NCBI GenBank assembly: GCA_029287615.1 | Contig: JARFQV010000200.1 | Coordinates: forward strand, 1-54,641 | Direction of reading: 5' to 3' | Source: Pseudomonadota bacterium | Lineage (GTDB): Bacteria; Pseudomonadota; Gammaproteobacteria; UBA9214 | DNA length: 54,641 nt | Part shown: positions 18,171 to 51,763 of the stretch, one piece after another | Layout: the number at the start of each line of letters is the position of its first letter | Numbering within the stretch: the first letter of the stretch is position 1 | Position numbers and translations under genes: made by a program | The notes under the pieces: generated by a model | Database searches by the model: none | What the model saw: only the letters and a program-made list of their open reading frames with translations | What the model was told of the DNA's origin: nothing

Positions 18171-18175
18171 GCTAT

Positions 18176-19135: not shown

Positions 19136-19265
19136 GAGGGTCGGGATGTATGGTGTTACGCATTACTGCCGCCAGAGAAGCCAAAATTCTGCCTGAATCA
19201 TCACACAAGTGCAATTCATTATTTTACTACTATACTTTAAATAGTATTTATATCTTACTGTTTTT

Positions 19266-19293
19266 ATTATACCTAATAATGACCGATTGACAA
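19266..19293 (-). promoter_or_regulatory. Candidate sigma70 promoter for the sulfotransferase B / ELM1 unit, inside an AT-rich island
   Basis: Read on the minus strand it is TTGTCA (19293-19288), 16 nt, TATAAT (19271-19266). This lies about 130 nt upstream of ATG 19135. The 13-nt palindrome CGATTGACAATCG (19284-19296) overlaps the -35 element. Confidence 0.4.
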
Positions 19294-19358
19294 TCGATCC
19301 AGCAACCACAACCGTTCCGATTCCTTCTGGATCCCTCTTTACCCGGGAACCCGTGTAT

Positions 19359-20414
19359 TCAGCTCCCCGGATTCAGCCAGTGAGCGAGGTCCCTGCCCAG
19401 CAGTCCGGACAGCTTGTGAACATCGTCTGCGAAATATTCTCTCAGTATCCCGAGCATCTCATCAGACAATTCCGCACGTTGCGCGGGTGGTCTGGTGTTG
19501 AATTTCTTGACTCTTTTACGGATTTTCTTCAGCTGTTCAAGCAGCCTGGTATTACTGAAATCGATATTCCGCATGAGCCAGGATGGGGGGTTCATGACGA
19601 ACTGCTGCAGCCAGGCATACCGGTAATCCCGGGTCTCGCGCCGCTGTCTGAATGTTTCCTGTCCATCATCATCCAGACCGATGAAACCGAGAATGCGGGT
19701 GTAGGCCGCCCTCGGATCCCGAATCAGATCGTCGAATACGATCACCAGGCAACGCTCACGCCCGACAATCCCGAACAGATGCTCCAGTCGCTTACCCAAC
19801 TGACCGATCTCTCCGTATTGCAGCATCAGCGGTTCCCGACACCGCTTCGGAATATCCAGCCCTGCAGCCCGGCGGCCCTGAAGCGACCAGGCACGCGCGA
19901 AGTCCCGCTCATTTTCATCGAGTTGGTACAGCAGGCGGTTATGGTAGGAAACCAGTAAATCAACCGGGTTCCTGACCGATACGATGAATCGCGCCCGGGG
20001 ATCAAACCGCAGGATCTGCCGGATCGCTTCCGGGAAGTAGAGGTAGGATATTGAACCGTCACCGATTGCCTCATGCTCAACGGAGAGTCCCCTGTGGTAA
20101 AGCCCCAGGTACCTGCTGCGTACCTGTTCATCGCTCAATGCCCCCGGCAGTTCCAGGAAATAATGTGGTTCCTTGGGTTTGGAAAAGCTGATCCCGGGAT
20201 GGCGGGCGAGCATCTTGCACAGTGCCGTGGTACCACAACGAGGTGCACCGATAACGAAAAACCCCGGTGGAAAGTCGATCTTGCCTGCCGAACCGGCCGC
20301 AAAAGAGCGATCTTCCTGCCCGAACCCGATCACATTGCCCATGTGCCGGGGTATGGCGTCCCTGGCCCCTGACTTTCCAGCCTTCCCAGTAACATGCATC
20401 ATCTGCTTGTTCAC
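19359..20414 (-). CDS. Sulfotransferase of a different subfamily (Sulfotransfer_3-like / heparan N-sulfotransferase-like fold)
   Basis: 351 aa from GTG 20414. The start is uncertain, with in-frame ATGs at residues 5, 6 and 25. The PSB loop is FFVIGAPRCGTTALCKML and the 3'-PB motif is VRNPVDLLVSYHNR. Confidence 0.8.
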   Translation of the reverse strand: MNKQMMHVTGKAGKSGARDAIPRHMGNVIGFGQEDRSFAAGSAGKIDFPPGFFVIGAPRCGTTALCKMLARHPGISFSKPKEPHYFLELPGALSDEQVRSRYLGLYHRGLSVEHEAIGDGSISYLYFPEAIRQILRFDPRARFIVSVRNPVDLLVSYHNRLLYQLDENERDFARAWSLQGRRAAGLDIPKRCREPLMLQYGEIGQLGKRLEHLFGIVGRERCLVIVFDDLIRDPRAAYTRILGFIGLDDDGQETFRQRRETRDYRYAWLQQFVMNPPSWLMRNIDFSNTRLLEQLKKIRKRVKKFNTRPPAQRAELSDEMLGILREYFADDVHKLSGLLGRDLAHWLNPGS

Positions 20415-20476
20415 AACGTAATCCAGCTAATTTCCGGGGTAATCCCTCTACCTTGCGCAGTAAGGTTCATCCGGTG

Positions 20477-20501
20477 CTAGCCCGCTTTTCTCACCACGAT
20501 G
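20477..20501. repeat. Solo copy of the terminal repeat of the 14976-15235 element
   Basis: CTAGCCCGCTTTTCTCACCACGATG matches the reverse complement of the right arm of the element (CTAGCCCGGATTTCTCGCCATGATG) at 21/25 positions. It matches the left arm at 20/25. No inverted partner is seen nearby. Confidence 0.35.
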
Positions 20502-20756
20502 CGGATCTCCATCGAAGGCGGGCATTTTTTCGCAGGACAAGGCGCACTGAGTATCGTGATACCTGTTATACGTAAGCGTACCTGCAATGCGGTCATGGGG
20601 GAAAATGGCCCCGTCCCGACGGCTTGCCTCTCAAATGAGACCATACGGCGTTGCGCATCGCTCATCTGGAATCAACAAACCACGCTCTGCGCGCCTGGTC
20701 TGGTCTCATTGGAGGGGCAACGCTGGGCATCTGCATCGTGTTAACAGGCCCTGACT

Positions 20757-21716
20757 CTATTTCCAGTCTTCTCTGGGAATATACTTTGGCCAGCGGCGCT
20801 TGGTGCATACCCATTGACCCGGTCTCTCCCGTATCCAGGATTCGAAGAGTGTATTGAGATCCCGCGTCATCTGCAGTGCCCTGTCATTAACATCTGTCAG
20901 CGATTCATCCGGTTTCAACGGCTCATACAGTGTGAAGCGAAAGCGGCCCCCCGAGAGCCGCTCGATTCGTGCCGGAACCAGATCATATCCGAATCGCAGC
21001 GCCAGTTTTGCGGGATTGGTGGTTGCCTGCATCTCCAGTCCGAAAAAGGGCACCGGTTCACCGTTATCAAATCGCTGATCGACGAGCAACCCCAGAGAAC
21101 GTCCTGCGGAGAGTTCCCGTAACAGCGGCCGCATACCCTCCTCCCGGCTGATCAGACTACATTTCATGGCACGTCGCTGACGATATAACAGACGGTCGAT
21201 CCAGCGGTTTTTTATCGGTGTATAGACCACCGATATGGGTACGCCCATCTGACTGGCCACGCCGGCCTGTATCTCCCAGTTGGCGAGGTGGGCCCCAACG
21301 AAGATCGCGGACCGTGTTCCATTCCGGTATGCATCCAGATTGCATTGGATATCAGTCTCTATCCTTTTGCCTTCCCTGTTCCTGCTGATCGCGCGGAGAT
21401 GCGGATATTCCGCCAGAACCGAACCGATGTTGCCCCATATATCCACAATAATGCTGCGGATCTCCTCCGGTGACTTTTCCGGGAAGGCAAGGCCAAGGTT
21501 GTATTTGATAACCGCTGTCTTGTCGAGGCGGGGACCTGCGAGACGCATGACACGATTACCGGCTGCGGATGCCCATGATGTGGGCAAAACGGCACTCAAC
21601 AGCAAAATCAGGCCATAGAACACCGCCTCTATCGCTTGCGAGATCCCGTGCATCACGGGAGATCGCCCGATACGCTTGCGCAAGCGCTTGGACTTGACAA
21701 GAAACAGGTCTGACAT
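20757..21716 (-). CDS. Lipid A late acyltransferase family protein (LpxL/HtrB-like, PF03279)
   Basis: The track ORF starts at GTG 21770. ATG 21716 is preceded by GGAGAGGAGG. It has an N-terminal TM helix, the HX4E catalytic motif in FVGAHLANWEI, and a typical ~320-aa length. Confidence 0.75.
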   Translation of the reverse strand: MSDLFLVKSKRLRKRIGRSPVMHGISQAIEAVFYGLILLLSAVLPTSWASAAGNRVMRLAGPRLDKTAVIKYNLGLAFPEKSPEEIRSIIVDIWGNIGSVLAEYPHLRAISRNREGKRIETDIQCNLDAYRNGTRSAIFVGAHLANWEIQAGVASQMGVPISVVYTPIKNRWIDRLLYRQRRAMKCSLISREEGMRPLLRELSAGRSLGLLVDQRFDNGEPVPFFGLEMQATTNPAKLALRFGYDLVPARIERLSGGRFRFTLYEPLKPDESLTDVNDRALQMTRDLNTLFESWIRERPGQWVCTKRRWPKYIPREDWK

Positions 21717-22037
21717 CCCTCCTCTCCGGCTCAGCCTGTCCCGGTTGCTGTACAGATACCCTGACAGCACCCTGATCGTTCATGAAATGAAGCGGTTGGG
21801 CACATCACTTGATCGCATTATCGGATTCGTATAACCGCATTATCATATTCATAGATTAGCGGGGCCTCGTGATTGGCGGATTCCACGGCATCCGGTCCTG
21901 GACTGATTCCAGATCTGCCCGCTCCTCATTTCCCGTAATTTCGTGATAGAATTGGACATTATATTTCCGGTATGGCTGAATTCAACGGTGGCCGTGATCT
22001 GCAGATATCCCGATCATCATGACGAGGAACAGGCAAC

Positions 22038-22940
22038 ATGAAATATAGCGTATATATCCAGGCCAACGACAAACAGTGGCTCGGCGCACTGGTGGCGAGA
22101 TATGCGCTGGAACGCAATTCAGCGCACTCAGACAAATTCGATATCCATATTATGCACTATGACGATTATCCCTACCTCAACAAGCGGGTGGGTGATATCT
22201 ACCTGCGTGACGGTGGCAAGCGCAAATGGGTACGGGATGATCTGCAATCATTTACCCCGCTTCGTTTTGCGCCACCGCAGTTGATGAACTACGAAGGGCG
22301 TGCCCTGGTTATCGACCCCGACGTGTTCGCTGTCGCCGATGCCTGGGACCTGCTCAGCAGGGACATGGAAGGCAATGCAATCCTGTGCAGGCCGAAATCG
22401 GGTACCAAGGGCAAAAAGGGTTGCCTCGCAACCAGTGTCATGTTGCTGGACTGCGCACAGCTCAAGCACTGGCGGTATGAAGAACAGTTTAACGAGATGT
22501 TTGAATTCAAGCGGGATTACATGGGCTGGGTATGCCTGAAGTACGAAGACCGGGACAAGATCGGTCTGTTCGAACTCGCGTGGAACGACTTCGACCATCT
22601 CGATGAAAATACCAAAATGCTGCACAACACAAAGCGCAAGACACAACCCTGGAAGACAGGGCTGCCGGTGGATTTCCGTCCCGCCGATGCCTTCCAGTTG
22701 TTTCCGCCAAAACACTGGATCCGCCGCGCACGCCGCGCCCTGTTCGGTGACTATGGGTTTACCGGCAACTACAAGCCACACCCCGACCCCAATCAGGAGC
22801 GTTTCTTCTTTGGCCTGGTACGCGAGTGCCTGGACAAGGGAATCATCAGCGAGGATCTATTGCGCGACGAAATGAAAAAGAACCACCTGCGGCACGATGC
22901 ACTGGAACTCGTAGCGCATACTTCACCGCTGGCTGCCTGA
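22038..22940 (+). CDS. GT8-like nucleotide-diphospho-sugar glycosyltransferase (divergent)
   Basis: 300 aa with an ATG start and GAGGA Shine-Dalgarno. Its motif order follows GT8 enzymes: a DxD-like LVIDPDVFAV followed by DLLSRDMEGNAILC, then ATSVMLLDCAQLKHWR, then WNDFDH...MLHNTKRKTQPWK (compare the H..g..KPW motif). The assignment rests on motif pattern only. Confidence 0.45.
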   Translation: MKYSVYIQANDKQWLGALVARYALERNSAHSDKFDIHIMHYDDYPYLNKRVGDIYLRDGGKRKWVRDDLQSFTPLRFAPPQLMNYEGRALVIDPDVFAVADAWDLLSRDMEGNAILCRPKSGTKGKKGCLATSVMLLDCAQLKHWRYEEQFNEMFEFKRDYMGWVCLKYEDRDKIGLFELAWNDFDHLDENTKMLHNTKRKTQPWKTGLPVDFRPADAFQLFPPKHWIRRARRALFGDYGFTGNYKPHPDPNQERFFFGLVRECLDKGIISEDLLRDEMKKNHLRHDALELVAHTSPLAA

Positions 22941-23192
22941 GTCACAGAGACCAGGATCCTTTAACCGTCAGTCGATCAATCCGGATTGCGGGGGCAACGC
23001 CGTAACGCGATCCTCCTGCGTGCGCCTGATCTATTCCCACCTGCGGGCTCTGCTTGTGTGCCCGGTGACAAGTTACTCGCGCAGTGATAGCTTTCATATG
23101 CTACCTACCCCGCTCTTACTAATCAGGGTCTTCGCCAAATTGGGTGGGTCTTGCTTATAAGTGTGGCAAAATATGGCTCTCGCCAAGTCGCC

Positions 23193-23227
23193 AGGCACGC
23201 AAAGAGGTGCTTGTGTATTGCGTGCCT
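23193..23227. terminator. Perfect 10-bp stem hairpin between convergent genes (possible bidirectional terminator)
   Basis: AGGCACGCAA (23193-23202), a 15-nt loop, then TTGCGTGCCT (23218-23227). It lies between the 22940 stop (+) and the 23336 stop (-). No U-tract is present. A second small hairpin, GGCGCA-CTT-TGCGCC, lies at ~23263-23277. Confidence 0.25.
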
Positions 23228-23335
23228 AAGCGATTGGTTAGCAGGCTGATATCATTCATCCCTGGCGCACTTTGCGCCTCTGCGAGAGACACTATGACTT
23301 TGGTTTACCCAGCCGATTCGGGGAAGAGCCACAAA

Positions 23336-24217
23336 TCAATCAGCATCCCCGCTTGCAGAGCCATAGCCGAAGTAGGGTGAGAGCGTGTTATCGACCAGGG
23401 CATCGATCTGCTCCACCTGACTGTCATCGAAGTAATCCCGATACCCACCCACCTTGGCGCGGCGTACCTTGTAGGTATTCGGATTGTCCCGGTCCTTGGG
23501 AACCATCCGACCACCACTTAACCAGAACACCTGCTTTTGCTCCATCTTTTTCATGTTCTCATAGGATCCGAATTCAACCGCCTCGGCAATCTGGTCTTTC
23601 GTGGCCGGTGTATCCAGAAACTCGAGCAATGCCTCCATGGTGCCGGCGGGGTTGGAACGCAAGTCTTCATAGCGCACCAGCATGAAACCCTTCAGCTTCG
23701 GCGCCTCACGGGCCCAGAGGTTCATGAAGGCAATAATCTTCGGCAAGCCGGCATCGGGATCCATCACGAAATCGAATACCGACACATCCCTGCCCTCCTC
23801 CGGATACCGGTTCAGGAGCTTCTTGTTGGGCTTCATCCGGTATTGCCACTGAAAGAACTGGGATACAGCCACATCACGCGGATCCCGGGCCAGCAGCGCA
23901 ACCTTTTTGTCGTAAAAGTCGACCTTTGAATCACGGTGACCGGTATAGTCCTTGATGTAATTGTCATGGGTGAAAAAAATACGGGGAACCGAACGGTTCA
24001 TGTGATGGTAATTATCGAAGCCCATGAGATAGCGCTCCGGCAGGCCATGCATCAACTGGTACACTCGCGACAGCATGACCCGTAGCCAGGTGCGGCCGCT
24101 TTTCCCGAAGGAAACGATGACAATATCCGTAAGGTTCAGCTTGCGGACATCCTCCATGCCGCGCAGCCAGCGCTCGACCTCCATCTTGCGCTCTTCGGTG
24201 GAGAAAAACATCAGCAT
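23336..24217 (-). CDS. PAPS-dependent sulfotransferase (Sulfotransfer_1-like), paralog C
   Basis: The track ORF starts at ATG 24292. ATG 24217 has an AGGGAG Shine-Dalgarno and aligns with paralog A (MLMFFSTEERKMEVERWLRG vs MLLVFFLPERKRIAIERWLRG). The PSB loop is FGKSGRTWLRVMLSRVY and the 3'-PB motif is LLARDPRDVAVSQFF. By eye it is more than half identical to paralog A. Confidence 0.85.
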   Translation of the reverse strand: MLMFFSTEERKMEVERWLRGMEDVRKLNLTDIVIVSFGKSGRTWLRVMLSRVYQLMHGLPERYLMGFDNYHHMNRSVPRIFFTHDNYIKDYTGHRDSKVDFYDKKVALLARDPRDVAVSQFFQWQYRMKPNKKLLNRYPEEGRDVSVFDFVMDPDAGLPKIIAFMNLWAREAPKLKGFMLVRYEDLRSNPAGTMEALLEFLDTPATKDQIAEAVEFGSYENMKKMEQKQVFWLSGGRMVPKDRDNPNTYKVRRAKVGGYRDYFDDSQVEQIDALVDNTLSPYFGYGSASGDAD

Positions 24218-24405
24218 ACGGGCTCCCTTGCGGGAGGTCTTTTTCCAGACGGTGCGGCATAATTGCCGGCCGGCGTGAACGATATGAGGCATGATCTATT
24301 TCCCGGTCCTCAAACCGCGGTGATCGTGAAACCCGGGACGTGGCTCATCCATGAAAAGCTGCATGCGGTTTCACGCCACGGTTTCACTGCCACTTTGGCA
24401 GGTGC

Positions 24406-26001
24406 CTACCAGTCAGGCCTGTTGAACATTGGTTGCGCCTTGCCGGTTGGCGGTGGTCCCGGCAGGTCGTCCGGTACCGTCTCGGGGATCAATCCACCCC
24501 AGTCGGTGCGGTCCCGCATCTGCTCCTGGCGTTCCTGGGGAAGGATGTCGTTGCCGGCACGTATCTGCCAGCCACCACCCAGTGCCTTGTAGGTTGCCAC
24601 CAGATTCAGCACGATTTCACCACGGACATTGGTATAGCGGTCCTGGGCAGACAGCAGGGACTGCTGGGTATCGAGCACCCGCTGATAATCAACCGCACCG
24701 TCCCGGTACTGGATCAGGGCCAGGTGCACAGAACGTTCGGCGGCCTTGACGCTATCGACAAGCAGAACGGCCTGTGCATTGGTACCGGTGAATCCGGCCA
24801 GTCCGTCTTCCACCTCGCGGAGCGCCTCGAGAACGGTATTCTGGTAGTTGACCAGTGCCTCTTCGAGCCTTGCATCCTGGACGCGGACATTGTTTTTCAG
24901 CCGCCCGTAATTCAGAATCGGCCAGGCAAAGGAAGGGCCGACACTGTAGCCGAAGCTGTCCGACTCGAACAGGTCATCCAGATCGCTCTCGTTCGTGTCA
25001 CTGCTCAGAAAACCGATGGAACCGACCAGGCTGAACCGTGGATACAGTTCCGTCACCGCAACACCCACGGCTGCACTCTGGGAAGCCGCCTGCAGTTCAG
25101 CCTGCCTGATATCCGGTCGGCGACGCAACAGGTCGGCCGGTATTCCCACGGCGATCTCGGCCGGCGGACTGGGAATGCCCTTTTCCCCCTGCAGCAGGCT
25201 GGACAAGTCCCCCGGCGGCATGCCCAGCAGAATGCTCAAGGCATTCATGGCCTGGTGCAGCTGGGTTTCAAGTTCAGGGATCTGCGCCTCGGTACTGCGC
25301 AGCAGGGTCAGGGCCTGGGAGGGATCCAGTTCACTGACTGCGCCATTGCGAAACTTTACATCGGCAATCTGGTAGCTGCGCTCCTGGGTCTTTGCATTAT
25401 CACGCGCAATCGCCACCCGCTCTTCGAGGGTTCGGATCACCACATAGATCCGGGCGACCTCGGCGGTCACCGAGACCAGTGCGTCATCATAGCTTGCGAT
25501 CTGCGAACCCAGGTTGGCGCTGGCGGATTCCACGCCGCGCCGGAACCGGCCCCAGAAATCCAGTTCCCAGGAGGCATCAAAACCGGCGTTCACCTGCCAG
25601 TACTTGTCATCCAGAGCCGGATTGAAGTTGGGCTGGTTCTCGCTGAGCTTATCCCTTGTCAGCGCACCGGCTGCCTGCTGGAACTGCGGGAACTGCTGGC
25701 CGATAGCGATGCCAAGCTGGGCCCTGGCCTGCAGTATTCGCAATCCCGAGATCTGCAACGGCAGATTCTGCTGGTAGGCTATGTCGACCAGATCATCCAG
25801 TACGGGATCATTGAGCGCCGTCCACCAGTCATGGTTGAATTCGGCATCCTTCTGGATCCTGGCCGCGTCTTGTGCCTTCCATTCTTCTGCAATCGCCGCC
25901 TCGGGAGTCTGGAAGTCAGGACCCAGTGTGGTACAGCCGCCCGCAGAGAGCAAAATACCGGCCAAACAGGCACCTGCCAGCCTTTCCCTTGATCTTCTCA
26001 T
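24406..26001 (-). CDS. Efflux-system outer-membrane factor lipoprotein, NodT/OprM family
   Basis: 531 aa. The lipobox-type signal is ...LLSAGGC followed by TTLGPDFQTPEA, the standard NodT N-terminus. Two tandem OEP repeats are present. There is a C-terminal P-rich extension. Confidence 0.9.
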   Translation of the reverse strand: MRRSRERLAGACLAGILLSAGGCTTLGPDFQTPEAAIAEEWKAQDAARIQKDAEFNHDWWTALNDPVLDDLVDIAYQQNLPLQISGLRILQARAQLGIAIGQQFPQFQQAAGALTRDKLSENQPNFNPALDDKYWQVNAGFDASWELDFWGRFRRGVESASANLGSQIASYDDALVSVTAEVARIYVVIRTLEERVAIARDNAKTQERSYQIADVKFRNGAVSELDPSQALTLLRSTEAQIPELETQLHQAMNALSILLGMPPGDLSSLLQGEKGIPSPPAEIAVGIPADLLRRRPDIRQAELQAASQSAAVGVAVTELYPRFSLVGSIGFLSSDTNESDLDDLFESDSFGYSVGPSFAWPILNYGRLKNNVRVQDARLEEALVNYQNTVLEALREVEDGLAGFTGTNAQAVLLVDSVKAAERSVHLALIQYRDGAVDYQRVLDTQQSLLSAQDRYTNVRGEIVLNLVATYKALGGGWQIRAGNDILPQERQEQMRDRTDWGGLIPETVPDDLPGPPPTGKAQPMFNRPDW

Positions 26002-27097: not shown

Positions 27098-29245
27098 TTA
27101 TTTCGCCGGGGGTTGCCCGTATGTACCTGGTACCAACCGCTCATCCACATCCACCAGTAACTGCGTATTGGACAGCGGCTGGTGAGTCTGTTGCTCATCA
27201 TCCAGCGGCAGCGAGACCTCGTTGGCAACCCACCAGGCACGTGCATCTTCCCTCGTCCAAAGGCCATTGTCGCGACACTGTGACATCAGTTCCACCAGTT
27301 CGCCGGCACTGGCGGGCCTCCGCCCTGGATCCTTGTCCAGACACTGCAGGATGATCCTCTCCAGATCCTCGGGTACGGGCTGGCGGGTACGTTGCGACGG
27401 CGGGACCGGCGCATCATGCAGATGACTGGCACAGATCTGGACCGCACTGTCGCCATCGAACACGTTATGTCCCGTCAGCAGGAAATAGCCGACGGCGCCG
27501 AGTGCATAGAGGTCACTTTGCGGACTCGCCAGACCCGGCGTGCTGATAATCTCCGGGGCCATGTACAAAGGTGTGCCAACCAGGGTATTGACCTGGGTAA
27601 GGGCGGGATCTTTCTCGCTGAGTTCCTTGACCAGCCCGAAGTCCAGCACCTTGATCACATCGTACATCCCGCCCCTTTCACACAGCATGATATTGGATGG
27701 CTTGATATCCCTGTGTATCAGGTTCTTTTCATGCGCCTCGTTCAGGGAGAAGCACACCTGTTGCAGGATATGGATAATCCTTGCCGCTGGCTGGGGGCCA
27801 TTGACCTGAACCAGGCTTTCCAGATTGATGCCGGTGAGATATTCCATGACATAATACAGGGTTCCATCCGGGCTCTGTCCGTAGTCGTAGACCGCAACCG
27901 TGTTCGGATTCGCCAGCCCACTCATGATCTGGACCTCATGCTCGAACCGGGCCTTGGCAGTCTCGCTGCGTGCATATTCCGGATGCATCAGCTTGACGGC
28001 AGTGGGTCGGCGCAGAAGGGCGTGCCGGGCACGGTATACTGCGCCATTTCCGCCATCACCAATCTTGTAGACCAGCTTGTACTGACCGAGTGTGCGTTCG
28101 ATCTGCGAGACGGCATTGCGCAGGTTACGGCGCATGGAACGTACCGCACCCAGAATCATCATGGCAGCTATCAGTATTCCCAGCCCCATGACACCGGCAA
28201 CCGCGAGATTGCGTGTTCGGTTGATACCGGAAAGAAAATCGGCCTCGGGTACAAGTACCGCTTCCCAGACCCGCTGATCAGCGCCGATATCATAGGACTT
28301 GAAACCGGCCCACCAGCCTTCGTGGTTGCTGGTAAAGGGAAAGATATTGGTAGTCCGCTCGAGCTTCTCCCATTCGGCGAAGCCATCATCCAGGACCGGG
28401 TGATTGAGATCGGCAACCGGTGCCAGGAGGCCACTGTTGATGGCTCGTTCATCCTGAAACCGTTCATCCGGTGGCAGGCCGACCAGGCGTTTGTCGTCGG
28501 ATACGACCAGTGCCATGCCATTCTCGCTTGGACGCAGATCCATAGTATAGCGGGAAATATCGGCTAGCAGGACATCGTAGGAGAAGACCGTAATATCACC
28601 GCTCTCCGGGTGTTCCCCCTTGACGGATACCGTTATCCCGGGTTTTTTATTCGTGTAAAAGGTATAGGGTTCGGTCCAGTGCACCACCCCGGGAGCAGAC
28701 TCCAGGGCACCGGTAAACCAGGGCCGATGGATTGGATCGAAGTCCGTGTGCCGCGTCCAGCTCTCGATCAGTTTTCCTTTTTTCCAGCGTTTCCATTGCG
28801 CATTCCGGTTATCGCCTTCCTCGACCAGGCGTGTCAGGTATTCTCCATTATCCCGGGTCAGCCTGAAGTGATTGTTCCCCTCAAGATCACTCATGGTAAA
28901 ACCGGTTACCTGAGGGTACTGATCCATGAACGGGGACAGGCGTCTTACCAGGATCTCCTCGATATCACGTTCGCCGGCATCCAGGGAGTGCAGGCGGCGA
29001 CTGGTCATCAGCAGGCTCTTTTCCAGCGGTCGGAAGAAGTGGCTCAGCTGCTGCTCGGTGGCAAAACTGCTTTTGTCAATCAGTTTGCGGGAAAGCGTGT
29101 CAACTATGCGTGCATCGAAGTACAGCATGATGGACATGCCAAGACCGATAATGAGCAGGGTCAGCAGGGCAAGATTCCGCAGCAGACTGCGCTGTTGCTG
29201 ACCGACACCGGTATCAATGCCATAGGTCGTGGCCGGGTTTTTCAT
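27098..29245 (-). CDS. Receptor-topology Ser/Thr protein kinase: TM, periplasmic Cache-like sensor, TM, C-terminal Hanks kinase
   Basis: 715 aa. TM1 is at ~aa 22-43. A ~300-aa extracytoplasmic region carries the Cache-type RPWF motif. TM2 is at ~aa 345-367. All kinase motifs are intact: GDGGNGAVY, AVKLM, HRDIKPSN, DFGLVK and GTPLYMAPE. Confidence 0.85.
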   Translation of the reverse strand: MKNPATTYGIDTGVGQQQRSLLRNLALLTLLIIGLGMSIMLYFDARIVDTLSRKLIDKSSFATEQQLSHFFRPLEKSLLMTSRRLHSLDAGERDIEEILVRRLSPFMDQYPQVTGFTMSDLEGNNHFRLTRDNGEYLTRLVEEGDNRNAQWKRWKKGKLIESWTRHTDFDPIHRPWFTGALESAPGVVHWTEPYTFYTNKKPGITVSVKGEHPESGDITVFSYDVLLADISRYTMDLRPSENGMALVVSDDKRLVGLPPDERFQDERAINSGLLAPVADLNHPVLDDGFAEWEKLERTTNIFPFTSNHEGWWAGFKSYDIGADQRVWEAVLVPEADFLSGINRTRNLAVAGVMGLGILIAAMMILGAVRSMRRNLRNAVSQIERTLGQYKLVYKIGDGGNGAVYRARHALLRRPTAVKLMHPEYARSETAKARFEHEVQIMSGLANPNTVAVYDYGQSPDGTLYYVMEYLTGINLESLVQVNGPQPAARIIHILQQVCFSLNEAHEKNLIHRDIKPSNIMLCERGGMYDVIKVLDFGLVKELSEKDPALTQVNTLVGTPLYMAPEIISTPGLASPQSDLYALGAVGYFLLTGHNVFDGDSAVQICASHLHDAPVPPSQRTRQPVPEDLERIILQCLDKDPGRRPASAGELVELMSQCRDNGLWTREDARAWWVANEVSLPLDDEQQTHQPLSNTQLLVDVDERLVPGTYGQPPAK

Positions 29246-29379: not shown

Positions 29380-31575
29380 TCATTCCTTTCTGTTACCGGC
29401 CAGGAAGATATCGGAATCCTGTGCCTCGTGCTGCCGCGTCCGCAGGGTGGGCGCCGCCTTCCTCAGTTCCGTCGCCATCTCCTGGATGGGACGGTTGGAC
29501 TTCGGCGCCGCCTGTCCCGATGCGATATGAGGCCACAGGGCGGTACGAAGCGCCGGTGGCAACAGGTTGTCCAGGTATTCGAGCGCCGTTCCGCTCAAGG
29601 CACGGTTCCCGCTGCCAAGCGCCTGGTAGCAAAGCTCGAATACATCCGGACCATAGACCAGTCCCAGCAGATTGAACACATGAGAGAGCGGGTCATGGCC
29701 ACCCGTCCGCCCGGTATCTGTCCCGCTGGTTTCGCGATCCGGCTCGTGCTGACCCATGGCACCGACTTCCCGTTCCACGATCTTCATCAGGATTTCCTTG
29801 GGAATACGCAGCTGCGGGTGATTCTCGCTGATCTTCCGCAGTGCCTGCCCGCAGCGATAGCGTACATCCCGGTCCGTATCGGCAAGCCCCTCCAGCAGTC
29901 CATCGACTGCACGCTGATTATCGGCCTGACTCAGGACCAGGGGAAGACGGCGCCGGATCACCGCATTTTGACGATGATCCAGCAGGGCATCCACCAGCTG
30001 CCCGGTTGCCGTGGACACCTGGGGTCGAATGGAACGGAACACATCACGCAACACGCGTTGCTCGGCGAGCAACGGGATGACGTGGGGCAGCAGCGCAGGG
30101 GTCAGGGCCTGACCGATCAATACCCTGCTGATACGTGAGGGATCCTGGCTGCGCAAATCCACAATGGCCTGGACCGTCGGATCGCCGCTCTCGGCCGGTG
30201 GTACCGGCTGACCGGGGTTCGCTGCCGGCTGTTCCCCCTGGCGCGACAGACTGATCTCCCTGAGCAGGGTATCCCGCTCCAGCGCTGTCTGTGTCAGGGC
30301 AATCGTATGCCGGGTGGTGGCATCCATCACCTTGATATCATCGGCCTGCAATGTCCCGTTGCGCAGATTTTCCGCCAGTTGCTGCACATAACCCTGGTGC
30401 AGCATGTAGATGACGAACAGGGTAAGGGCCGCCAGCAGGATGCTGGTGATCAGCAGGATATTTCCGGTTGCGACGGGCACCAGCAGAATCACCATGACGA
30501 GCAGGCTGCCGATCATCTCGCCGGTGCGTTCCACCCCGACATCGATCAGGATCTTGCTGGTGCGCTTTTCCGCTGCCGGAACCGGTGTATAAACCGCCTC
30601 GGAGCCCGCGCGGAAAAACGAGTTAACCAACAGACTGGTACCACCGCGCAGCAGGGCCACGGTAATCAGTTGTCTGATTGCGATGGCAAACAAACCACCG
30701 GCCATAACCACCAGCGGGAGAACGGCCATGGTCCCGCCGATACCGAATCTGCGCAAGGCCTTGTCCCCGACCAGACCCTGCAGTAAAAATCCGCCGAGGC
30801 CCACCGCCATGTAAAAATAGGAGAAAAAATTGATCAGCTGGTCATCCGACAGGGTGCTCGCGGCCATGGACTTCATCAGGTAGTCGAGCAGGGCCACGAT
30901 AATCGCGATCAATACCACCACGATAGCCATGCGCCGGATGAGCGTATTGTTCTTGAGTGGCGCCAGGATGAAACCCACTGCCTTGCCCTGCTGTGCATGC
31001 CGTTGCTCACCCCGGGTCACAACCGCCAGCGTCAGGGCACAGAACAGGTGCATGATTCCCAGCATCATCAGGACGGCATGCAAATCGCTCGCACCGGCAA
31101 CCGTCTTCGCCGCCAGCCCCCCCAGCAACCCGCCGAGGGTGGCTGCGGCTGCGAGACGCGCGATCTTTCGTTTCGCCGTGTAGGGATCGAAACGCTCATT
31201 GATCACCGACCAGAATCCACTGATCAGAATGGCTCCCAGAACCGTGACATGCAGATACAAAACGATGGCAATGGCACTGGGCAGATAATCCATGAGCAGC
31301 CATTCGATGCTGAACAGGATACCGCTCGTCATAAAAATACGCGGCACCAGCCATGCCGGACCCAGGCGAGTCATCAATCGCGACATGGACAATACCGCCA
31401 CCACCGAAAGAAAGGCACTGACCATCATCATTCGCGGCAGCAGTTCAACGTTGAACAGGGTGAGAAACAGGGCATCCCGCGTGGCCTTCCCGGCCACGTG
31501 ATGGGCGATCATCACGGTCGCGGTGAGAATGGCGGCAATGGTTACCGTGGTGGTATCGGATCGGTTCTTTTCCAT
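29380..31575 (-). CDS. 12-TM MFS-type transporter resembling TLC/Npt nucleotide transporters, fused to a C-terminal HEAT/ARM-like repeat domain
   Basis: 731 aa. About 430 aa are polytopic membrane sequence with the N-terminal KATRDALFLTLFNVELLP motif seen in TLC-like carriers. About 300 aa of helical repeats follow, with HEAT-like units (...LLEGLADTDRDVRYRCGQALRKI...). The subfamily call is from memory and unverified. Confidence 0.55.
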   Translation of the reverse strand: MEKNRSDTTTVTIAAILTATVMIAHHVAGKATRDALFLTLFNVELLPRMMMVSAFLSVVAVLSMSRLMTRLGPAWLVPRIFMTSGILFSIEWLLMDYLPSAIAIVLYLHVTVLGAILISGFWSVINERFDPYTAKRKIARLAAAATLGGLLGGLAAKTVAGASDLHAVLMMLGIMHLFCALTLAVVTRGEQRHAQQGKAVGFILAPLKNNTLIRRMAIVVVLIAIIVALLDYLMKSMAASTLSDDQLINFFSYFYMAVGLGGFLLQGLVGDKALRRFGIGGTMAVLPLVVMAGGLFAIAIRQLITVALLRGGTSLLVNSFFRAGSEAVYTPVPAAEKRTSKILIDVGVERTGEMIGSLLVMVILLVPVATGNILLITSILLAALTLFVIYMLHQGYVQQLAENLRNGTLQADDIKVMDATTRHTIALTQTALERDTLLREISLSRQGEQPAANPGQPVPPAESGDPTVQAIVDLRSQDPSRISRVLIGQALTPALLPHVIPLLAEQRVLRDVFRSIRPQVSTATGQLVDALLDHRQNAVIRRRLPLVLSQADNQRAVDGLLEGLADTDRDVRYRCGQALRKISENHPQLRIPKEILMKIVEREVGAMGQHEPDRETSGTDTGRTGGHDPLSHVFNLLGLVYGPDVFELCYQALGSGNRALSGTALEYLDNLLPPALRTALWPHIASGQAAPKSNRPIQEMATELRKAAPTLRTRQHEAQDSDIFLAGNRKE

Positions 31576-32011
31576 CTGCGATCTGGATTTTCAGGACTTT
31601 TTCAGGATTGGGATCCACCGGAATCAACAGGCATTGTAAGTGACTTTCCATTCAATTGACATTCGTATGACACGCCACCCTGCCACTCCAGGCCGTTGCG
31701 AGAATTACCTTATCAAGCAGCAGGCAGCGGATCCCGTCGCGATTGCCTGTCAACACCACTCGCACCGCGAGCGACCGTGTTATCCCGTCCGGATCCCGAA
31801 CAATGTCCTGTTTTCGTGTCGAATTCGGGAGATTACCTCGCCCCGTGCGCGGGGACCGGAAATCAGGGACTGCACAGCTAGGCCCGGGGCACTATCCCGA
31901 TTGACTTTTCCGGCACGACGCTTCACCCTTCCTTCCTGTGGGAAATCGGAAACGGAACAACTGAAACGAGTTTCCGGAACGCTCAACCAGAGAATCGCAG
32001 GAATCCCTTCC

Positions 32012-34933
32012 ATGTATCCTAAAATACCCGTTTTGACTGCCCTGCTGGCATTGCTCGTCACCATTCATTCACCTGATACTTCAGCACTTGCCCCGGATCA
32101 GGCAAGGGAATATATCGTTGAAATGAAGACGGCGCCACGCGGACCCTTCACCCGCATCCGCTGGTACTGCAATGATGGCGCGGTCCTGCCGCCCAAGGCC
32201 TTTGCCTGTGCAGAACGCGGCGGGGGTATCCAGCATGGCGAGTGGAGCGACAAAACGAAACAACTGCGGGATCACGGCTACCTGATTGCAAATTTTCTCG
32301 CAGGAGTGGATGCCGGGGCACTGGTACAACAGGCGGATTTCCCTCAACTCTACAATCAACTGCTACTGGAACAGTTCCTGATTCGACAGGACGACGGCTG
32401 GATCCTGCGCAAGGCCCGCTATTACCGGGGTGCATACCAGGTTGAGGACGAGGCGCAGGGAGCGCGGGAACTGCTGCACGCCCTTCTCGCCGACGATGAC
32501 TGGGTAGAACACCGATTCCTCCCGCTGCGCGCCGGGGCCCGGCTATTACCCTGGAAGGCAGACAGCGCCTCCATCGCCGGTGTGCGCCAGGACTCATCGG
32601 CACTTGCCGATCTGGACTCCGGCTTCATGCCGCTCAAGAACAAGATCCACAACCGGCCGGATGCAGAGGATGCGGCAAGGGTGCGGGAGTACTCGGCGAG
32701 TGTACAGGACAAAAAGCTGGAAGAACGCTTTATCGCCCTGGCCGATGCCATCGACGCCATCTACCAGGCAGATCGCCTGAATGAGACGGCCCGGGAGTTG
32801 CAGAAGAGGCTCCCGGCGGACGAGGTACTGGCCGGTTTCCTGGAAACATCGTTGCAACAGCTCGCCGACCCGGATCCGCTGGTCCGCTACGGAACCAGTG
32901 CACAGATACTCGCCAAGCTCAGAGACCGGATGCCGGCCCTGAAGGATGTCGATACCCGCTTTGCCGCACTGCAGCTCAGCCTGGAGGTAGAACTGGCCAA
33001 CTATCGCGCCTCGACCGAGCTGATAGAAAAGGTGAACCGGCAAACCAGGGCAGCGGACGTGGAATGGATGGGCTACGGGTTGCAGGCCCTCTACGGAGTG
33101 GGCCTGATCTCTGCACGTCAGCTGGAGGCAACGCTGAAGTCGCTCGAACCATTGCATGGCAGGCAGATCAAGGCCGGCGACTACAAGCGGGAACTGGATT
33201 ACCTGGCCCATGTACCGGCCTGGGGCAGCCGCTGGTTGATGTTCTATTTCGGCGAGACCCTGGACCACTGGCGTGCGATTGAGCCGGAAGTCGACCTTTT
33301 CCCCCAGGACCAGTTGCGGGGCAGCCCCCTGCTGTTCTACTCCCGGGTACTGGATGTACTGCTCGTCGATGCCAACCGCCTGTTTGGCGTCCGTCACAGC
33401 CTGTTCGGTGAAGATCTTGGCAGCGGGCTGCGGGCCCTCAATCCGGGACTGGCACGCGGTGTGCTGCGGGAACCCCCCGGAGAGGGTGAGGAATACGACG
33501 CGGAGGGTATATACCTGCTGCCACACACCACCGCCGAGCTACCCCCGGTTGCGGGCATACTGACCGCCGGCGAAGGTAATCCCCTCTCCCATGTCCAGCT
33601 GCTGGCCCGAAATCTCGGCATCCCCAATGTGGCCGTGGATGAACACCTCATCGAAACCGTCCGGAAACAGACTGGCAAAACGGTTATCCTGGCGGTCAGT
33701 CCCGGGGGAATTATCGAACTGGAGGAGGACCATGGCCAGCTGGACAAGGTCTTTGATGATGGTGGCGATGCAGATCAACAGGCGCTGATTCGCCCGGATC
33801 TGGAGAAACTGAATCTGGAAGAGACCCGTATACTGAGCCTGGATGAACTGCGCGCCAGCGACTCCGGCCGGGTGGTCGGTCCGAAGGCGGCCAAATTGGG
33901 AGAACTCCACCACCATTATCCCCAGTCAGTGACGCAAGGCGTGGCCATCCCCTTCGGTATCTTCCGCCAGATGCTGGACCAGCCCATGCCAGGGGAGAAA
34001 GGAACGGTATTTGAATGGATGACGGCTGAATACGACCGTCTCGGCAAGCTGCCGGAAGGTTCGAAACAGCGTGCGGAGGAAACCGAGTCATTCCGTGCCA
34101 GCCTGCAGGACTGGGTTATGAATGCAGATCCGGGTGATGATTTTCGCCAGCGCCTGCGGAGCAGAATGACCGAGGTCTTCGGAAAGGACGGCAGCTACGG
34201 GGTATTTATCCGCAGTGATACCAATGTGGAGGACCTGCCGGGCTTTACCGGAGCGGGCCTGAATCTGACCCTGCCCAATGTGGTGGGATTCGACAAGGTG
34301 GCAGAGGGCATACCGCGCGTGTGGGCCTCCCCGTTCAGCAAGCGTGCCTTTGCCTGGCGCCAGTCACACATGGACGACCCGGAGAACGTTTACCCGGCAG
34401 TACTGCTGCTGCAGAGTGTGCCATCTGAAAAATCAGGCGTACTGGTCACACAGGACATCGATACGGGAGATCGGAACTGGCTCTCGGTCGCCGTCCAGGA
34501 AGGGGTTGGCGGGGCTGTGGACGGGGAAGCCGCGGAGTCGCTGCGTATCGATGTGAAGACCGGGGAGGTTCGACTGCTTGCCCAGGCCACCGCACCCCTG
34601 CGCACGGACATAGACTCCGGTGGGGGGGTACGCAATATGCCGGTCAGCACCTCCGACCGGGTATTGACCGATGACGAGATCCGCCAGCTTATCGAATTGA
34701 GCAATGACCTGCCCGGGCGCTTCCCGCCGATCATCGACGCACAGGGCAACCCCGCACCGGCTGATATCGAGTTTGGCTTTCTGGATGGCAAGCTGCGCCT
34801 GTTCCAGCTGCGCCCCTTTCTGGAGAGCCAGCAGGCCCAGCGCAGCCAGTACCTGAGCAAGATGGACGCCGGTCTCAAGAAGCCGCATTCAAACACCGTG
34901 GACCTGAAATCCCCCCCGCTGTCGGGGCAATAA
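32012..34933 (+). CDS. Exported PEP-utilizing-family dikinase-like protein: signal peptide, ~480-aa unknown domain, swivel phospho-His domain, C-terminal PPDK_N ATP-grasp domain
   Basis: The track ORF starts at GTG 31640, but the first 124 aa are R/C-rich junk. ATG 32012 gives MYPKIPVLTALLALLVTIHSPDTSALA. The swivel motif is PPVAGILTAGEGNPLSHVQLLARNLGIPNVAV, with the His codon at 33590-33592. ATP-grasp motifs are VGPKAAKLGEL, FIRSDTNVEDLPGFTGAGLN, VWASPFSKRAFAWRQ, SGVLVTQD and DIEFGFLDGKLRLFQLRP. No PEP-utilizers_C TIM-barrel domain is present. Confidence 0.75.
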   Translation: MYPKIPVLTALLALLVTIHSPDTSALAPDQAREYIVEMKTAPRGPFTRIRWYCNDGAVLPPKAFACAERGGGIQHGEWSDKTKQLRDHGYLIANFLAGVDAGALVQQADFPQLYNQLLLEQFLIRQDDGWILRKARYYRGAYQVEDEAQGARELLHALLADDDWVEHRFLPLRAGARLLPWKADSASIAGVRQDSSALADLDSGFMPLKNKIHNRPDAEDAARVREYSASVQDKKLEERFIALADAIDAIYQADRLNETARELQKRLPADEVLAGFLETSLQQLADPDPLVRYGTSAQILAKLRDRMPALKDVDTRFAALQLSLEVELANYRASTELIEKVNRQTRAADVEWMGYGLQALYGVGLISARQLEATLKSLEPLHGRQIKAGDYKRELDYLAHVPAWGSRWLMFYFGETLDHWRAIEPEVDLFPQDQLRGSPLLFYSRVLDVLLVDANRLFGVRHSLFGEDLGSGLRALNPGLARGVLREPPGEGEEYDAEGIYLLPHTTAELPPVAGILTAGEGNPLSHVQLLARNLGIPNVAVDEHLIETVRKQTGKTVILAVSPGGIIELEEDHGQLDKVFDDGGDADQQALIRPDLEKLNLEETRILSLDELRASDSGRVVGPKAAKLGELHHHYPQSVTQGVAIPFGIFRQMLDQPMPGEKGTVFEWMTAEYDRLGKLPEGSKQRAEETESFRASLQDWVMNADPGDDFRQRLRSRMTEVFGKDGSYGVFIRSDTNVEDLPGFTGAGLNLTLPNVVGFDKVAEGIPRVWASPFSKRAFAWRQSHMDDPENVYPAVLLLQSVPSEKSGVLVTQDIDTGDRNWLSVAVQEGVGGAVDGEAAESLRIDVKTGEVRLLAQATAPLRTDIDSGGGVRNMPVSTSDRVLTDDEIRQLIELSNDLPGRFPPIIDAQGNPAPADIEFGFLDGKLRLFQLRPFLESQQAQRSQYLSKMDAGLKKPHSNTVDLKSPPLSGQ

Positions 34934-35099
34934 TGCACACGGATATCTCCGCCATGGTCAATAAACGGGGATCGGGTACCGTGCGCATGCGCACACCTGA
35001 CTGCCGGAATCAGACAGGCAATCATGCCTGACACCATCGATCCCCCGCTATCGATCCACCGGTATAAAACGGCTTCTGAAAACCGGGCTTCCAATCCTG

Positions 35100-36419
35100 A
35101 TGAACAACAGGCGGTTCATTTATTATTTCGTCATAGCCCTCTTTATCTATCTTGTACTGGAGTCCACGACCTACGCACTGTATTACCTGAGGCAGGATAA
35201 ACCACTCTCATTCTCTGAGCTTCGGGAACAGCGCCAGGTGATCGCCAGGGAAAAGCCGGTCTCCCTTTCCGGTGAACCGGGTGCACTTGAGAATCCTTGT
35301 TACACAGAGGTGCTTCATCCTTACCTTGGTTTTGTTCGCGCCGTGCAGGAAGTGCCAAAAGGTGGTGAAGACTGCGATGCCGTGGATCTCTATGCGTACG
35401 AGTTCGGTTTTCCCGACCCGGATGTAGCCATATACTCCAGGCAGGCAAACAGGGTGATCGTCGGTATCTTCGGCGGCTCGTTTGCGCAGGGCCTCTCACT
35501 CAAGGCAGAAGACATCCTGATCGACGAACTGCGACTGTCTCCCTGTTTCGCCGGTAAAACCATCGAGGTGTTGACGCTGGCGATGGGCGGTTACAAACAA
35601 CCGCAACAGCTGCTCACCCTGGCCTACTTCCTTTCACTGGGTGCCCATTTTGACGTGGTCATCAATATCGACGGCTTCAATGAAGTCGTCCTGCCAGCCA
35701 CAGAGAACATAGCAAAACAGGTTTTCCCTTTTTACCCGAGGAACTGGTTTGGAAGGGTGGAAAAGTTCGATCCCGCTATGCTGACATTCACGGCAAGACG
35801 TGATCAGCTCACAGAAAAACGCAGCGAGTGGGCTGCACTATTCCTGAATCCACTGCGTTTCAGTATCACTGCGAATGTCATATGGTGGGCATATGACCGG
35901 TTATTATCCGGCAGAATCGCCAATCTCCAGATCGACGCGCTTGAATATGAACCCGCCGAAAATACCGGCGATACCGTATCAGGACCCGATTTTCACTATG
36001 CCGATGACGAAGCGCTTTATTCCGGGTTGGCCACGGTATGGAAGGATGCATCGATACAAATGGGGAGGCTCGTCGCTGCCAATGACGGCCTGTATCTGCA
36101 TTTTCTGCAGCCCAACCAGTATGTTCCTGACAGCAAACCCATGCACGAGGCAGAGCGAAAACTGGCGTTGCACGCTGACCACCCCTATCGAAAGAGTGTT
36201 GAAAATGGATACCCGGCTCTGATAGAAGCTGGCAGACAGTTGAAGGATGAGGGCATCCGGTTCCATGACCTGACGCAACTCTTCAGGGGCCACCGGGAAG
36301 CTCTCTATGTAGACGATTGTTGCCACCTGGAAAGACCGGGTTACGGAATGATCAACCGGGTGATTGCGCAGGAAATCAGGGGAATCCTTGAATCAGCGGA
36401 GGCTGGTTGCAGGCAGTGA
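35100..36419 (+). CDS. Membrane-anchored SGNH/DltD-like protein (putative esterase or O-acyltransferase)
   Basis: 439 aa with an N-terminal TM helix (FIYYFVIALFIYLVLESTTYALYYL). SGNH-like blocks occur in the right order: VGIFGGSFAQG (block I-like), VINIDGFNEV (block III-like) and YVDDCCHLERPGY (DxxH, block V). Pattern-level call only. Confidence 0.4.
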   Translation: MNNRRFIYYFVIALFIYLVLESTTYALYYLRQDKPLSFSELREQRQVIAREKPVSLSGEPGALENPCYTEVLHPYLGFVRAVQEVPKGGEDCDAVDLYAYEFGFPDPDVAIYSRQANRVIVGIFGGSFAQGLSLKAEDILIDELRLSPCFAGKTIEVLTLAMGGYKQPQQLLTLAYFLSLGAHFDVVINIDGFNEVVLPATENIAKQVFPFYPRNWFGRVEKFDPAMLTFTARRDQLTEKRSEWAALFLNPLRFSITANVIWWAYDRLLSGRIANLQIDALEYEPAENTGDTVSGPDFHYADDEALYSGLATVWKDASIQMGRLVAANDGLYLHFLQPNQYVPDSKPMHEAERKLALHADHPYRKSVENGYPALIEAGRQLKDEGIRFHDLTQLFRGHREALYVDDCCHLERPGYGMINRVIAQEIRGILESAEAGCRQ

Positions 36420-51696: not shown

Positions 51697-51763
51697 CTCC
51701 ACCACCAGGGAAATTCAATCCCGCCATGGCCCAGCGACTGCCAAACTACATCATGCCCGGTTG

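Follow-up and report, generated by a model that had tools for sequence, protein, structure and literature searches.

In phosphoenolpyruvate (PEP) synthase (PEPS), as in pyruvate phosphate dikinase (PPDK), an ATP-grasp domain is followed by a histidine domain and by a PEP/pyruvate TIM barrel; in the plant alpha-glucan water dikinases (GWD), a substrate-binding N-terminus is followed by the histidine domain and by a C-terminal nucleotide-binding domain. Rifampin phosphotransferase (RPH), another swivelling-histidine enzyme, is cytoplasmic. The periplasm is normally regarded as ATP-free, its processes drawing their energy from the inner membrane or from substrates activated beforehand. Here we describe a gene located at positions 32012-34933 of the forward strand of contig JARFQV010000200.1 (assembly GCA_029287615.1, gammaproteobacterial lineage UBA9214; the 54,641 nucleotides analysed are hereafter called the window). 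It encodes a 973-aa protein, hereafter the dikinase, which joins a GWD-like domain order to a predicted Sec-type leader and whose relatives are frequently encoded beside nucleotide transporters of the NTT/TLC type. The best overall explanation, which we favour by a modest degree, is that this protein is a periplasmic dikinase working through a swivelling histidine on a non-pyruvate acceptor and receiving its ATP through the linked NTT.

GWD is homologous to PEP synthase and PPDK, its histidine is essential and, according to a 2026 review, no high-resolution GWD structure exists (PMC12892837). The NTT and NTT-HEAT proteins of free-living bacteria were catalogued in 2017 by Major, Embley and Williams, no function being assigned to them (PMC5381601).

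Gene structure and domain order

The open reading frame (ORF) starts at an ATG at 32012, with AGGA 9 nt 5' of it, and ends at a stop codon at 34931-34933; the assignment of the whole 973-aa gene is supported by the translation, by full-length homologues and by an AlphaFold2 (AF2) model. The ORF is enclosed in a longer frame of 1097 aa, which opens with GTG 31640 and closes at 34933. The 124-codon extension between GTG 31640 and ATG 32012 has an atypical composition, rich in Arg, Pro and Cys. Conservation among the full-length homologues begins at about residue 34, and nothing in them corresponds to the extension; consequently, ATG 32012 is the credible start. The parts of the protein are, in order, a Sec-type leader, a helical domain of about 430 aa, a phosphohistidine swivel domain and a C-terminal PPDK_N ATP-grasp domain. 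The full-length AF2 model has a pLDDT of 84.2 and a pTM of 0.85, with low-confidence linkers flanking the histidine domain.

A preliminary description of this gene, made from the letters of the sequence, had listed four features (a leader, an N-terminal region without recognisable motif, a domain with a catalytic histidine and a C-terminal PPDK_N domain), and all four were recovered where it had placed them. Its proposal of a GWD-like domain order is likewise borne out by the Pfam coordinates, residues 503-560 followed by residues 621-946, with 430 aa ahead of them. The Pfam search gave no match to the PEP/pyruvate TIM barrel (PF02896) in the dikinase at E <= 0.01. Because this barrel is absent and the domain order is different, the dikinase, judged on its sequence, cannot be a PEP synthase or a PPDK; it is assigned to a known enzyme class, outside the PEPS, PPDK and RPH memberships. 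A characterised family of the same architecture, which the preliminary description had named as counting against its hypothesis, was not found. What seems new in the dikinase is the predicted exported location, the N-terminal domain, and the dedicated NTT and beta-lactamase-fold partners described below.

Phosphohistidine and ATP-grasp domains

The phosphohistidine swivel domain (residues 460-591; 33389-33784, forward strand) was assigned from PF00391, from the invariant His527 and from a beta/alpha domain in the model. The PF00391 (PEP-utilizers) match spans residues 503-560 and scores 23.4 bits (cut-off 23.1). The catalytic His527 (codon at 33590-33592; motif GNPLSHVQLLARNLGIP / GEGNPLSHVQLLARNLGIPN) is invariant in 46 aligned sequences and aligns to the catalytic histidine of the PEP synthase 8a8e. 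A flexible linker with low pLDDT spans residues 584-591 of the model.

The PPDK_N-type ATP-grasp nucleotide-binding domain (residues 621-946; 33872-34849, forward strand) is supported by Pfam, by Foldseek and by invariant residues; the catalytic Lys, Arg and Thr and the Mg-binding Glu and Gln expected of such a domain have their counterparts in it. PF01326 covers residues 621-946 at 94.5 bits (cut-off 27; E = 1e-26), the match taking in positions 3-319 of the 328 in the profile. The Foldseek search of this domain retrieved RPH in the first place (5hv1, E 1e-13; isolated domain 5hv6, TM-score 0.81-0.83), then PEPS, HpeI and PPDK. Invariant residues among the 46 sequences include K625 (GPKAAKL), E740/D741, K807, E920 and Q932-x-R934; moreover, R734 and T753 align with R117 and T136 of RPH (alignment to 5fbs), residues which, together with K22, position the alpha-beta phosphodiester of ATP in that enzyme (PMC4844700). 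The NCBIfam models of PEP synthase, rifampin phosphotransferase and PigC/RedH match the ATP-grasp domain only, with scores an order of magnitude under their cut-offs. The window dikinase keeps every family-invariant residue; the loss of function in the histidine or ATP-grasp residues that the preliminary description had considered is not seen in the sequence, in which all the catalytic residues are intact. Dikinase chemistry through His527 is highly probable on these alignments.

Predicted export

Residues 1-27 (32012-32092, forward strand) form a putative Sec-type signal peptide, supported by its sequence, by equivalent leaders in the homologues and by a pLDDT below 50 in the model. In the leader, MYPKIPVLTALLALLVTIHSPDTSALA, the n-region holds a Lys, the h-region is 14 residues long and the c-region is of the AxA type. 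A hydrophobic leader with the n/h/c pattern was present in 107 of the 116 scorable homologues (120 retrieved), the leader sequences themselves being unrelated, which extends the export predicted in the preliminary description to the whole family. Homologue leaders usually finish in an AxA-type site without Pro at +1. In the dikinase, cleavage is likely after A25 (TSA|LA) or A27 (ALA|P); the site T23-S24-A25|L26, two residues upstream, avoids having Pro28 at +1. No 19-residue window of the leader reaches the transmembrane (TM) threshold. The uncleaved anchor that had been suggested from the Pro at +1 is thus weakened by the 14-residue h-region, the sub-threshold TM score, the T-S-A|L site and the AxA sites of the orthologues, and a cleaved signal peptide appears more likely; in both cases the catalytic domains are predicted to face the periplasm. 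The dikinase has two cysteines in its 973 aa, C53 and C66, both invariant, which probably form a disulfide, and the recurrent partner proteins carry signal peptides or a lipobox. An extracytoplasmic location is, on these features, a likely one. The paradox pointed out in the preliminary description, that of an ATP-using enzyme being exported, is real; it had not seen the NTT/TLC transporters that are conserved neighbours of the gene.

N-terminal domain

The region between the leader and the swivel domain (residues 28-459; 32093-33388, forward strand) was delimited from the lack of Pfam and NCBIfam matches, the AF2 model and Foldseek, and is presumed to bind the acceptor. Residues 28-459 matched no Pfam or NCBIfam family, and no Pfam match was found anywhere in residues 1-500. 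The structure prediction that had been proposed for this region gave a confident helical fold (AF2 of residues 28-505: pLDDT 84.7, pTM 0.83), composed of a small beta unit, which holds the invariant pair C53/C66, and then about 20 helices. The Foldseek search of this model found no match in the PDB (best E 0.65, TM-score <= 0.17), nor in BFVD; since no fold match was found, the modelled domain is taken to be neither a carbohydrate-binding module (CBM) nor a rifampin (RIF)-binding domain. It carries many invariant Arg, Trp and Tyr residues. HMMER, run exhaustively with the N-terminal 478 aa, retrieved 603 clusters at 50% identity; among the 150 matches listed, the full-length proteins have about 920-1050 aa and the domain starts at about residue 20-75, the others looking like fragments. 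The N-terminal domain therefore appears to exist solely within the dikinase architecture and, being family-specific and confidently folded in the model, is the obvious candidate for the acceptor site.

Conserved neighbourhood of the dikinase genes

ORFs were clustered across the 80 loci nearest to the query, and the recurrent clusters were annotated: c1 (about 425 aa) and c2 (about 300 aa), both with a signal peptide and a Beta-lactamase2 domain; c3, an NTT/TLC transporter, hereafter the short NTT (representative: PF03219 TLC 52 bits; TIGR00769); c4, an SDF symporter fused to an SBP_bac_3 domain; c5, a lipoprotein 5'-nucleotidase of the e(P4) type (211 bits vs a cut-off of 216); and c18, a secreted metallophosphoesterase. 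In 52 of 66 loci, the c1 gene is directly downstream of the dikinase gene and in the same orientation (median gap -4 bp), the pair being translationally coupled. Where each flank reached at least 8 kb (34 loci), c1 was found in 32, c2 in 25, an NTT in 24, c4 in eight and c5 in five. Both c1 and c2 keep the SxxK, SxN and KSG motifs; searches of c1 and c2 against PDB sequences returned nothing, and no NCBIfam beta-lactamase model matched them. In Agaribacterium haliotis (L049; NZ_NKQJ01000002.1, 8914-15730), the genes for c2, the dikinase, c1 and the NTT all lie on one strand in a single operon, overlapping by 4-8 nt. Among cultured bacteria, it is the best model for experiments.

The reciprocal test, started from the short NTT, covered 80 metagenome loci, 60 of which carry a close NTT (at least 44% identity). 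The c2 gene was adjacent in 43 of the 44 close-clade loci with at least 1.2 kb upstream; when both flanks reached at least 6 kb, the close-clade loci had c2 in 14 of 14 cases, and the dikinase and c1 in 8 of 14. Among the distant-NTT loci (n = 15), the dikinase and c1 were found in two and c2 in one. Judging from these counts in the close-clade and the distant-NTT loci, the close NTT clade is dedicated, by gene linkage, to the dikinase system, and a functional coupling of the short NTT to the dikinase is probable.

Phosphoesterases were also observed in these neighbourhoods (loci L004, L006, L007, L028, L067, L084-L104): the lipoprotein 5'-nucleotidase of the e(P4) family turns up repeatedly next to c2 and the NTT, and the secreted metallophosphoesterase c18 adjoins the dikinase in a few loci. 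These periplasmic phosphoesterases could recycle AMP or reverse the phosphorylation. A defence system was considered and rejected: PADLOC gave no match for the dikinase, the NTT-HEAT protein of the window, c1 or c2.

Distribution of the family

A search of 5.8 billion protein sequences gave 1152 matches, the best 120 of which were examined; these have 932-1034 aa, at least 94% query coverage and 52-64% identity. Since the whole 973-aa architecture recurs at this identity and coverage, its recurrence is far beyond what chance would be expected to give. The source annotation of the homologues is only "PEP/pyruvate-binding domain-containing protein" or hypothetical. The taxonomic distribution of the permuted architecture, a check that had been proposed from the start, proved to be wide: a scan of one genome per species found a dikinase relative in at least 583 genomes, mostly of Gamma- and Betaproteobacteria and Desulfobacterales, and cultured carriers include A. 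haliotis and two Halieaceae. A full-text literature search returned nothing relevant on the dikinase architecture or on any periplasmic dikinase. A search for the GWD histidine motif also gave no result, and likeness to that motif is not taken as evidence here. One locus (L094, 35-7450) has a dikinase paralogue of only 30% identity to the query beside a close-clade NTT, an SDF-SBP fusion and an e(P4) phosphatase, and so suggests that the system has another subfamily, more distantly related.

The NTT-HEAT gene and other genes of the window

In the window, the transporter gene beside the dikinase gene and transcribed divergently from it (29380-31575, reverse strand) encodes an NTT(TLC)-HEAT nucleotide-transporter fusion of 731 aa with about 10 TM segments. 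Alone, this protein is under the Pfam thresholds (TLC 19.3 bits vs 21; HEAT_2 21.5 vs 27.7) and also has a weak MFS match; its orthologues, however, match PF03219 TLC in 11 of 11 cases (best E 4.6e-14) and HEAT_2 in 5 of 11. Direct BLASTP with the short NTT was weak (E 0.002), and the kinship emerged through the orthologue set, which shares 25-28% identity with the short NTTs of the system (E 1e-21). The gene at 29380-31575 is accordingly assigned the NTT-HEAT architecture from sequence comparison.

Downstream of the NTT-HEAT gene there is a receptor-type Ser/Thr kinase gene (27098-29245, reverse strand; Pkinase 161.9 bits), whose product has a TM segment at residues 25-43, a periplasmic region of about 300 aa, a second TM segment at 347-365 and the kinase domain at 389-645. 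The PADLOC PD-T4-6 models match it through the generic kinase domain only. At locus L081, which holds the closest relative of the dikinase (64% identity), the kinase gene, the NTT-HEAT gene and the divergently oriented dikinase gene are arranged as here, with c1 and c2 coming next; the kinase/NTT-HEAT/dikinase gene order is shared only with this locus, and an unrelated RR-kinase is present in 4-6 other loci. We tentatively include the Ser/Thr kinase in the dikinase system; its pairing with NTT-HEAT at both loci is a hint that a signal from outside the cytoplasm controls nucleotide transport. The 436 nt between the NTT-HEAT and dikinase genes (31576-32011), identified from the sequence, are presumed to be a shared regulatory region. 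Rfam gave no match over 31400-35200, and promoter- or terminator-like sites near the dikinase were not above shuffle expectation.

No relatives of c1, c2, c4 or c5 were found anywhere in the window (tblastn; also a hidden Markov model for c1). The usual c1 position is occupied by a gene at 35100-36419 (forward strand), whose product, 439 aa long and membrane-anchored by a single N-terminal TM segment, has no Pfam match. It was tried as a diverged c1 and rejected, belonging to a separate broad hypothetical family: it has more than 3800 homologues in many phyla, one of which carries a Lipase_GDSL_2 (SGNH-type) match.

Farther from the dikinase, the window has four sulfotransferase genes (16135-17067, forward strand; 18176-19135, 19359-20414 and 23336-24292, reverse strand) interleaved with an ELM1-like glycosyltransferase gene (17064-18170) and the gene of a lipid A acyltransferase of the LpxL type (20757-21770), and a TolC-like OEP gene (24406-26001) after the cluster. 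The 16135-24292 cluster may be devoted to a sulfated glycolipid or to the modification of lipopolysaccharide (LPS). The sulfotransferases and LpxL were rejected as functional context of the dikinase, not being conserved beside it elsewhere. At 8087-14919 (reverse strand), the gene of an AsmA/YhdP-like 1101-aa protein overlaps by 4 nt that of a 1176-aa hybrid histidine kinase (dCache, HAMP, HisKA, HATPase, two receiver domains and Hpt), an apparent coupling, of an unusual kind, between a lipid-transport-type protein and a sensor kinase. Encoded in succession at 46746-54274 (reverse strand) are a STAS protein, a fusion of a response regulator to a SpoIIE phosphatase and two multi-PAS/GAF histidine kinases, a module of the partner-switching type. 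The remaining genes of the window are ordinary.

Proposed mechanism and alternative explanations

In the mechanism that we propose, the C-terminal ATP-grasp domain would bind ATP and phosphorylate His527, releasing AMP and Pi (or PPi); the swivel domain would then travel on its flexible linkers to the helical N-terminal domain, where the phosphoryl group would pass from His527 to a non-pyruvate acceptor, in the periplasm. The domain content, the conservation of the catalytic residues and of the leader, and the gene linkage are seen in the sequences themselves; the periplasmic activity, the nature of the acceptor and the direction of nucleotide transport we infer. The linked NTT/TLC transporters would most likely bring ATP to the periplasm and retrieve adenine nucleotides, the transporter being the divergent NTT-HEAT (29380-31575) here and the short NTT in most other genomes. 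In most genomes, c1 and c2, putative secreted class-A beta-lactamase-fold serine hydrolases, would act before or after the phosphorylation, and the e(P4)-type periplasmic 5'-nucleotidase, where present, could recycle AMP; the neighbourhood of the window dikinase would have lost c1 and c2. The preliminary description had proposed a polymer or another non-pyruvate acceptor. The non-pyruvate part is supported, there being no TIM barrel and a different domain order; the polymer or glucan part finds no specific support, since the conserved partners are beta-lactamase-fold serine hydrolases, not glycoside hydrolases, and nothing points to a glucan acceptor.

We regard the role of the NTT as ATP supplier as finely balanced, leaning a little towards the negative. 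Possible, and more doubtful, is the wider proposal of a dedicated ATP economy in the periplasm of free-living Gram-negative bacteria, in which a specialised NTT/TLC clade exports ATP, retrieves AMP or ADP and powers the exported dikinase; this would phosphorylate a substrate of the periplasm or the envelope, to be processed in turn by the beta-lactamase-fold hydrolases. Several points weigh against a periplasmic dikinase fed by the NTT. ATP is not known to be present in the periplasm, and porins would let it leak outward; the characterised NTTs import or exchange nucleotides, and we know of no free-living bacterium in which export has been shown. The localisation of the dikinase is read from sequence features, and the PEP-utilizers match scarcely exceeds its threshold. 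The 80 dikinase loci are the most similar to the query and hence a non-random sample of the family, and in about 30% of the well-flanked loci an NTT is missing within 10 kb. Linkage of the NTT is closer with c2 (14/14) than with the dikinase (8/14), so that the import by the NTT of a product released by c2 fits at least as well as ATP supply. Finally, the window has neither c1 nor c2, and the local dikinase may work differently.

The tight tie between the NTT and c2 leads to the first alternative to be weighed, the salvage of a nucleotide or nucleotide conjugate, in which the NTT would import, and c2, c1, the dikinase and e(P4) would process an external or envelope-derived nucleotide compound for uptake; the dikinase would either work on this compound or run toward nucleotide formation. 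Every characterised NTT imports (PMC5381601), as this alternative supposes, c2-NTT is the tightest pair (43/44 and 14/14 loci), and the e(P4) 5'-nucleotidase and the secreted metallophosphoesterase recur nearby. A PPDK_N ATP-grasp domain would, however, still require a periplasmic nucleoside triphosphate or another high-energy phosphoryl donor, none of which is evident. Water-dikinase reactions are, besides, effectively irreversible (established PEPS/GWD enzymology), and we consider salvage unlikely. A phosphotransfer to a partner protein, most likely c1, as from Enzyme I to HPr in the PTS, with the N-terminal domain as a docking module, is improbable: the 4-nt overlap of the dikinase and c1 genes in most loci suggests stoichiometric co-production, and the N-terminal domain is all-helical and without recognisable ligand-binding fold, but the window copy has no c1 nearby and still keeps all the invariant residues, and the intact SxxK, SxN and KSG motifs of c1 suggest an enzyme rather than a phospho-carrier.

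More improbable still is the leading idea of the preliminary description, a bacterial counterpart of GWD phosphorylating a periplasmic or envelope polysaccharide (osmoregulated glucans, extracellular polysaccharide, LPS sugars). The order of substrate, histidine and ATP-grasp domains is identical and the window has envelope-modification genes (sulfotransferases, LpxL); those genes are, however, not conserved at the other loci, no glycoside hydrolase or glycosyltransferase is found among the conserved neighbours, and the helical, matchless N-terminal domain has no CBM45, CBM20 or other carbohydrate-binding fold. A periplasmic RPH-like phosphotransferase inactivating a xenobiotic or an antibiotic, in a resistance module with beta-lactamase-like enzymes, would agree with RPH as the top structural match of the ATP-grasp domain, with the class-A beta-lactamase motifs all retained in c1 and c2 and with the existence of RPH-like dikinases of unexplored substrates (PMC4844700). 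It must be set against an RPH model score of 91 bits (cut-off 999), a different domain order and an N-terminal domain unlike the RIF-binding domain, against the failure of c1 and c2 to match any NCBIfam beta-lactamase model or PDB sequence, and against the chromosomal, syntenic and environmentally widespread nature of the system, without mobile-element context; we rank this explanation lower again. The least probable explanation is a cytoplasmic dikinase, with a mis-called N-terminus or a hydrophobic segment that does not engage Sec. ATP is cytoplasmic, and a longer in-frame ORF does open at GTG 31640, but the upstream extension lacks homology and has an atypical composition, the leader is kept as a feature in 107 of the 116 scorable homologues, there are just two Cys in 973 aa, and the recurrent partners are all secreted or membrane proteins.

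A widespread dikinase of predicted export (at least 583 species genomes), when its genes travel with ATP/ADP-translocase-type transporters, challenges the view of an ATP-free periplasm. If the periplasmic ATP economy were true, the NTTs of free-living bacteria would have their first assigned function, and a soluble periplasmic enzyme would for the first time be seen to have an energy supply line dedicated to it. The system makes periplasmic ATP use and the role of NTTs in free-living bacteria directly testable, and the linkage to the dikinase offers a testable function for the catalogued NTT and NTT-HEAT proteins (PMC5381601). The four-gene operon of A. haliotis provides a cultured starting point for genetics and biochemistry, and the analysis defines a candidate acceptor-binding domain without known fold relative and two uncharacterised beta-lactamase-fold hydrolase families.

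Comparison with known systems

The likeness of the dikinase to GWD and phosphoglucan water dikinase (PWD) lies in the same domain order, and the comparison made here, being one of domain order alone, is an architectural analogy; both would presumably perform water-dikinase chemistry on a non-pyruvate acceptor. The dikinase differs in having no CBM45 or CBM20 and an N-terminal domain that is helical, not a beta-sandwich, in its bacterial Sec leader, where the plant enzyme has a plastid transit peptide, and in its partners, which are serine hydrolases and nucleotide transporters, whereas those of GWD are amylases and glucan phosphatases.

RPH (5hv1, 5fbs) is the nearest solved structure to the dikinase ATP-grasp domain (about 23% identity), and is likewise a three-domain swivel-histidine enzyme with a family-specific substrate domain (PMC4844700). 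The linear order of RPH is different (ATP-grasp, RIF-binding or substrate domain, C-terminal histidine domain), its model NF041857 scores the dikinase at 91 bits against a cut-off of 999, and the N-terminal domain retrieves no RPH structures. We infer that the dikinase order is a circular permutation of the RPH order, which the PEPS/PPDK order is not. The best PDB sequence matches of the dikinase are with PEPS (8a8e, E 6e-25; 2ols; 9dae), with ATP-grasp and histidine-domain motifs in common; in contrast to PEPS and PPDK, the dikinase lacks the PEP/pyruvate TIM barrel, has the order reversed and is predicted to be exported, and the NCBIfam PEPS models score it at about 95 bits against cut-offs of 600-880.

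The DNA ligase Lig E, a signal-peptide-bearing and ATP-requiring enzyme of Gram-negative bacteria (PMC10799422; bioRxiv 10.64898/2026.03.22.713542), is a precedent for a periplasm-targeted ATP-dependent enzyme. Its fold and chemistry are unrelated to those of the dikinase. To our knowledge, no dedicated nucleotide transporter is linked to Lig E. As for the transporters, the window gene at 29380-31575 and its orthologues show the NTT-HEAT architecture described in the 2017 catalogue, and the short NTTs match PF03219/TIGR00769; no link to a dikinase was reported there (PMC5381601), whereas in the present loci a single NTT clade goes specifically with c2, c1 and the dikinase.

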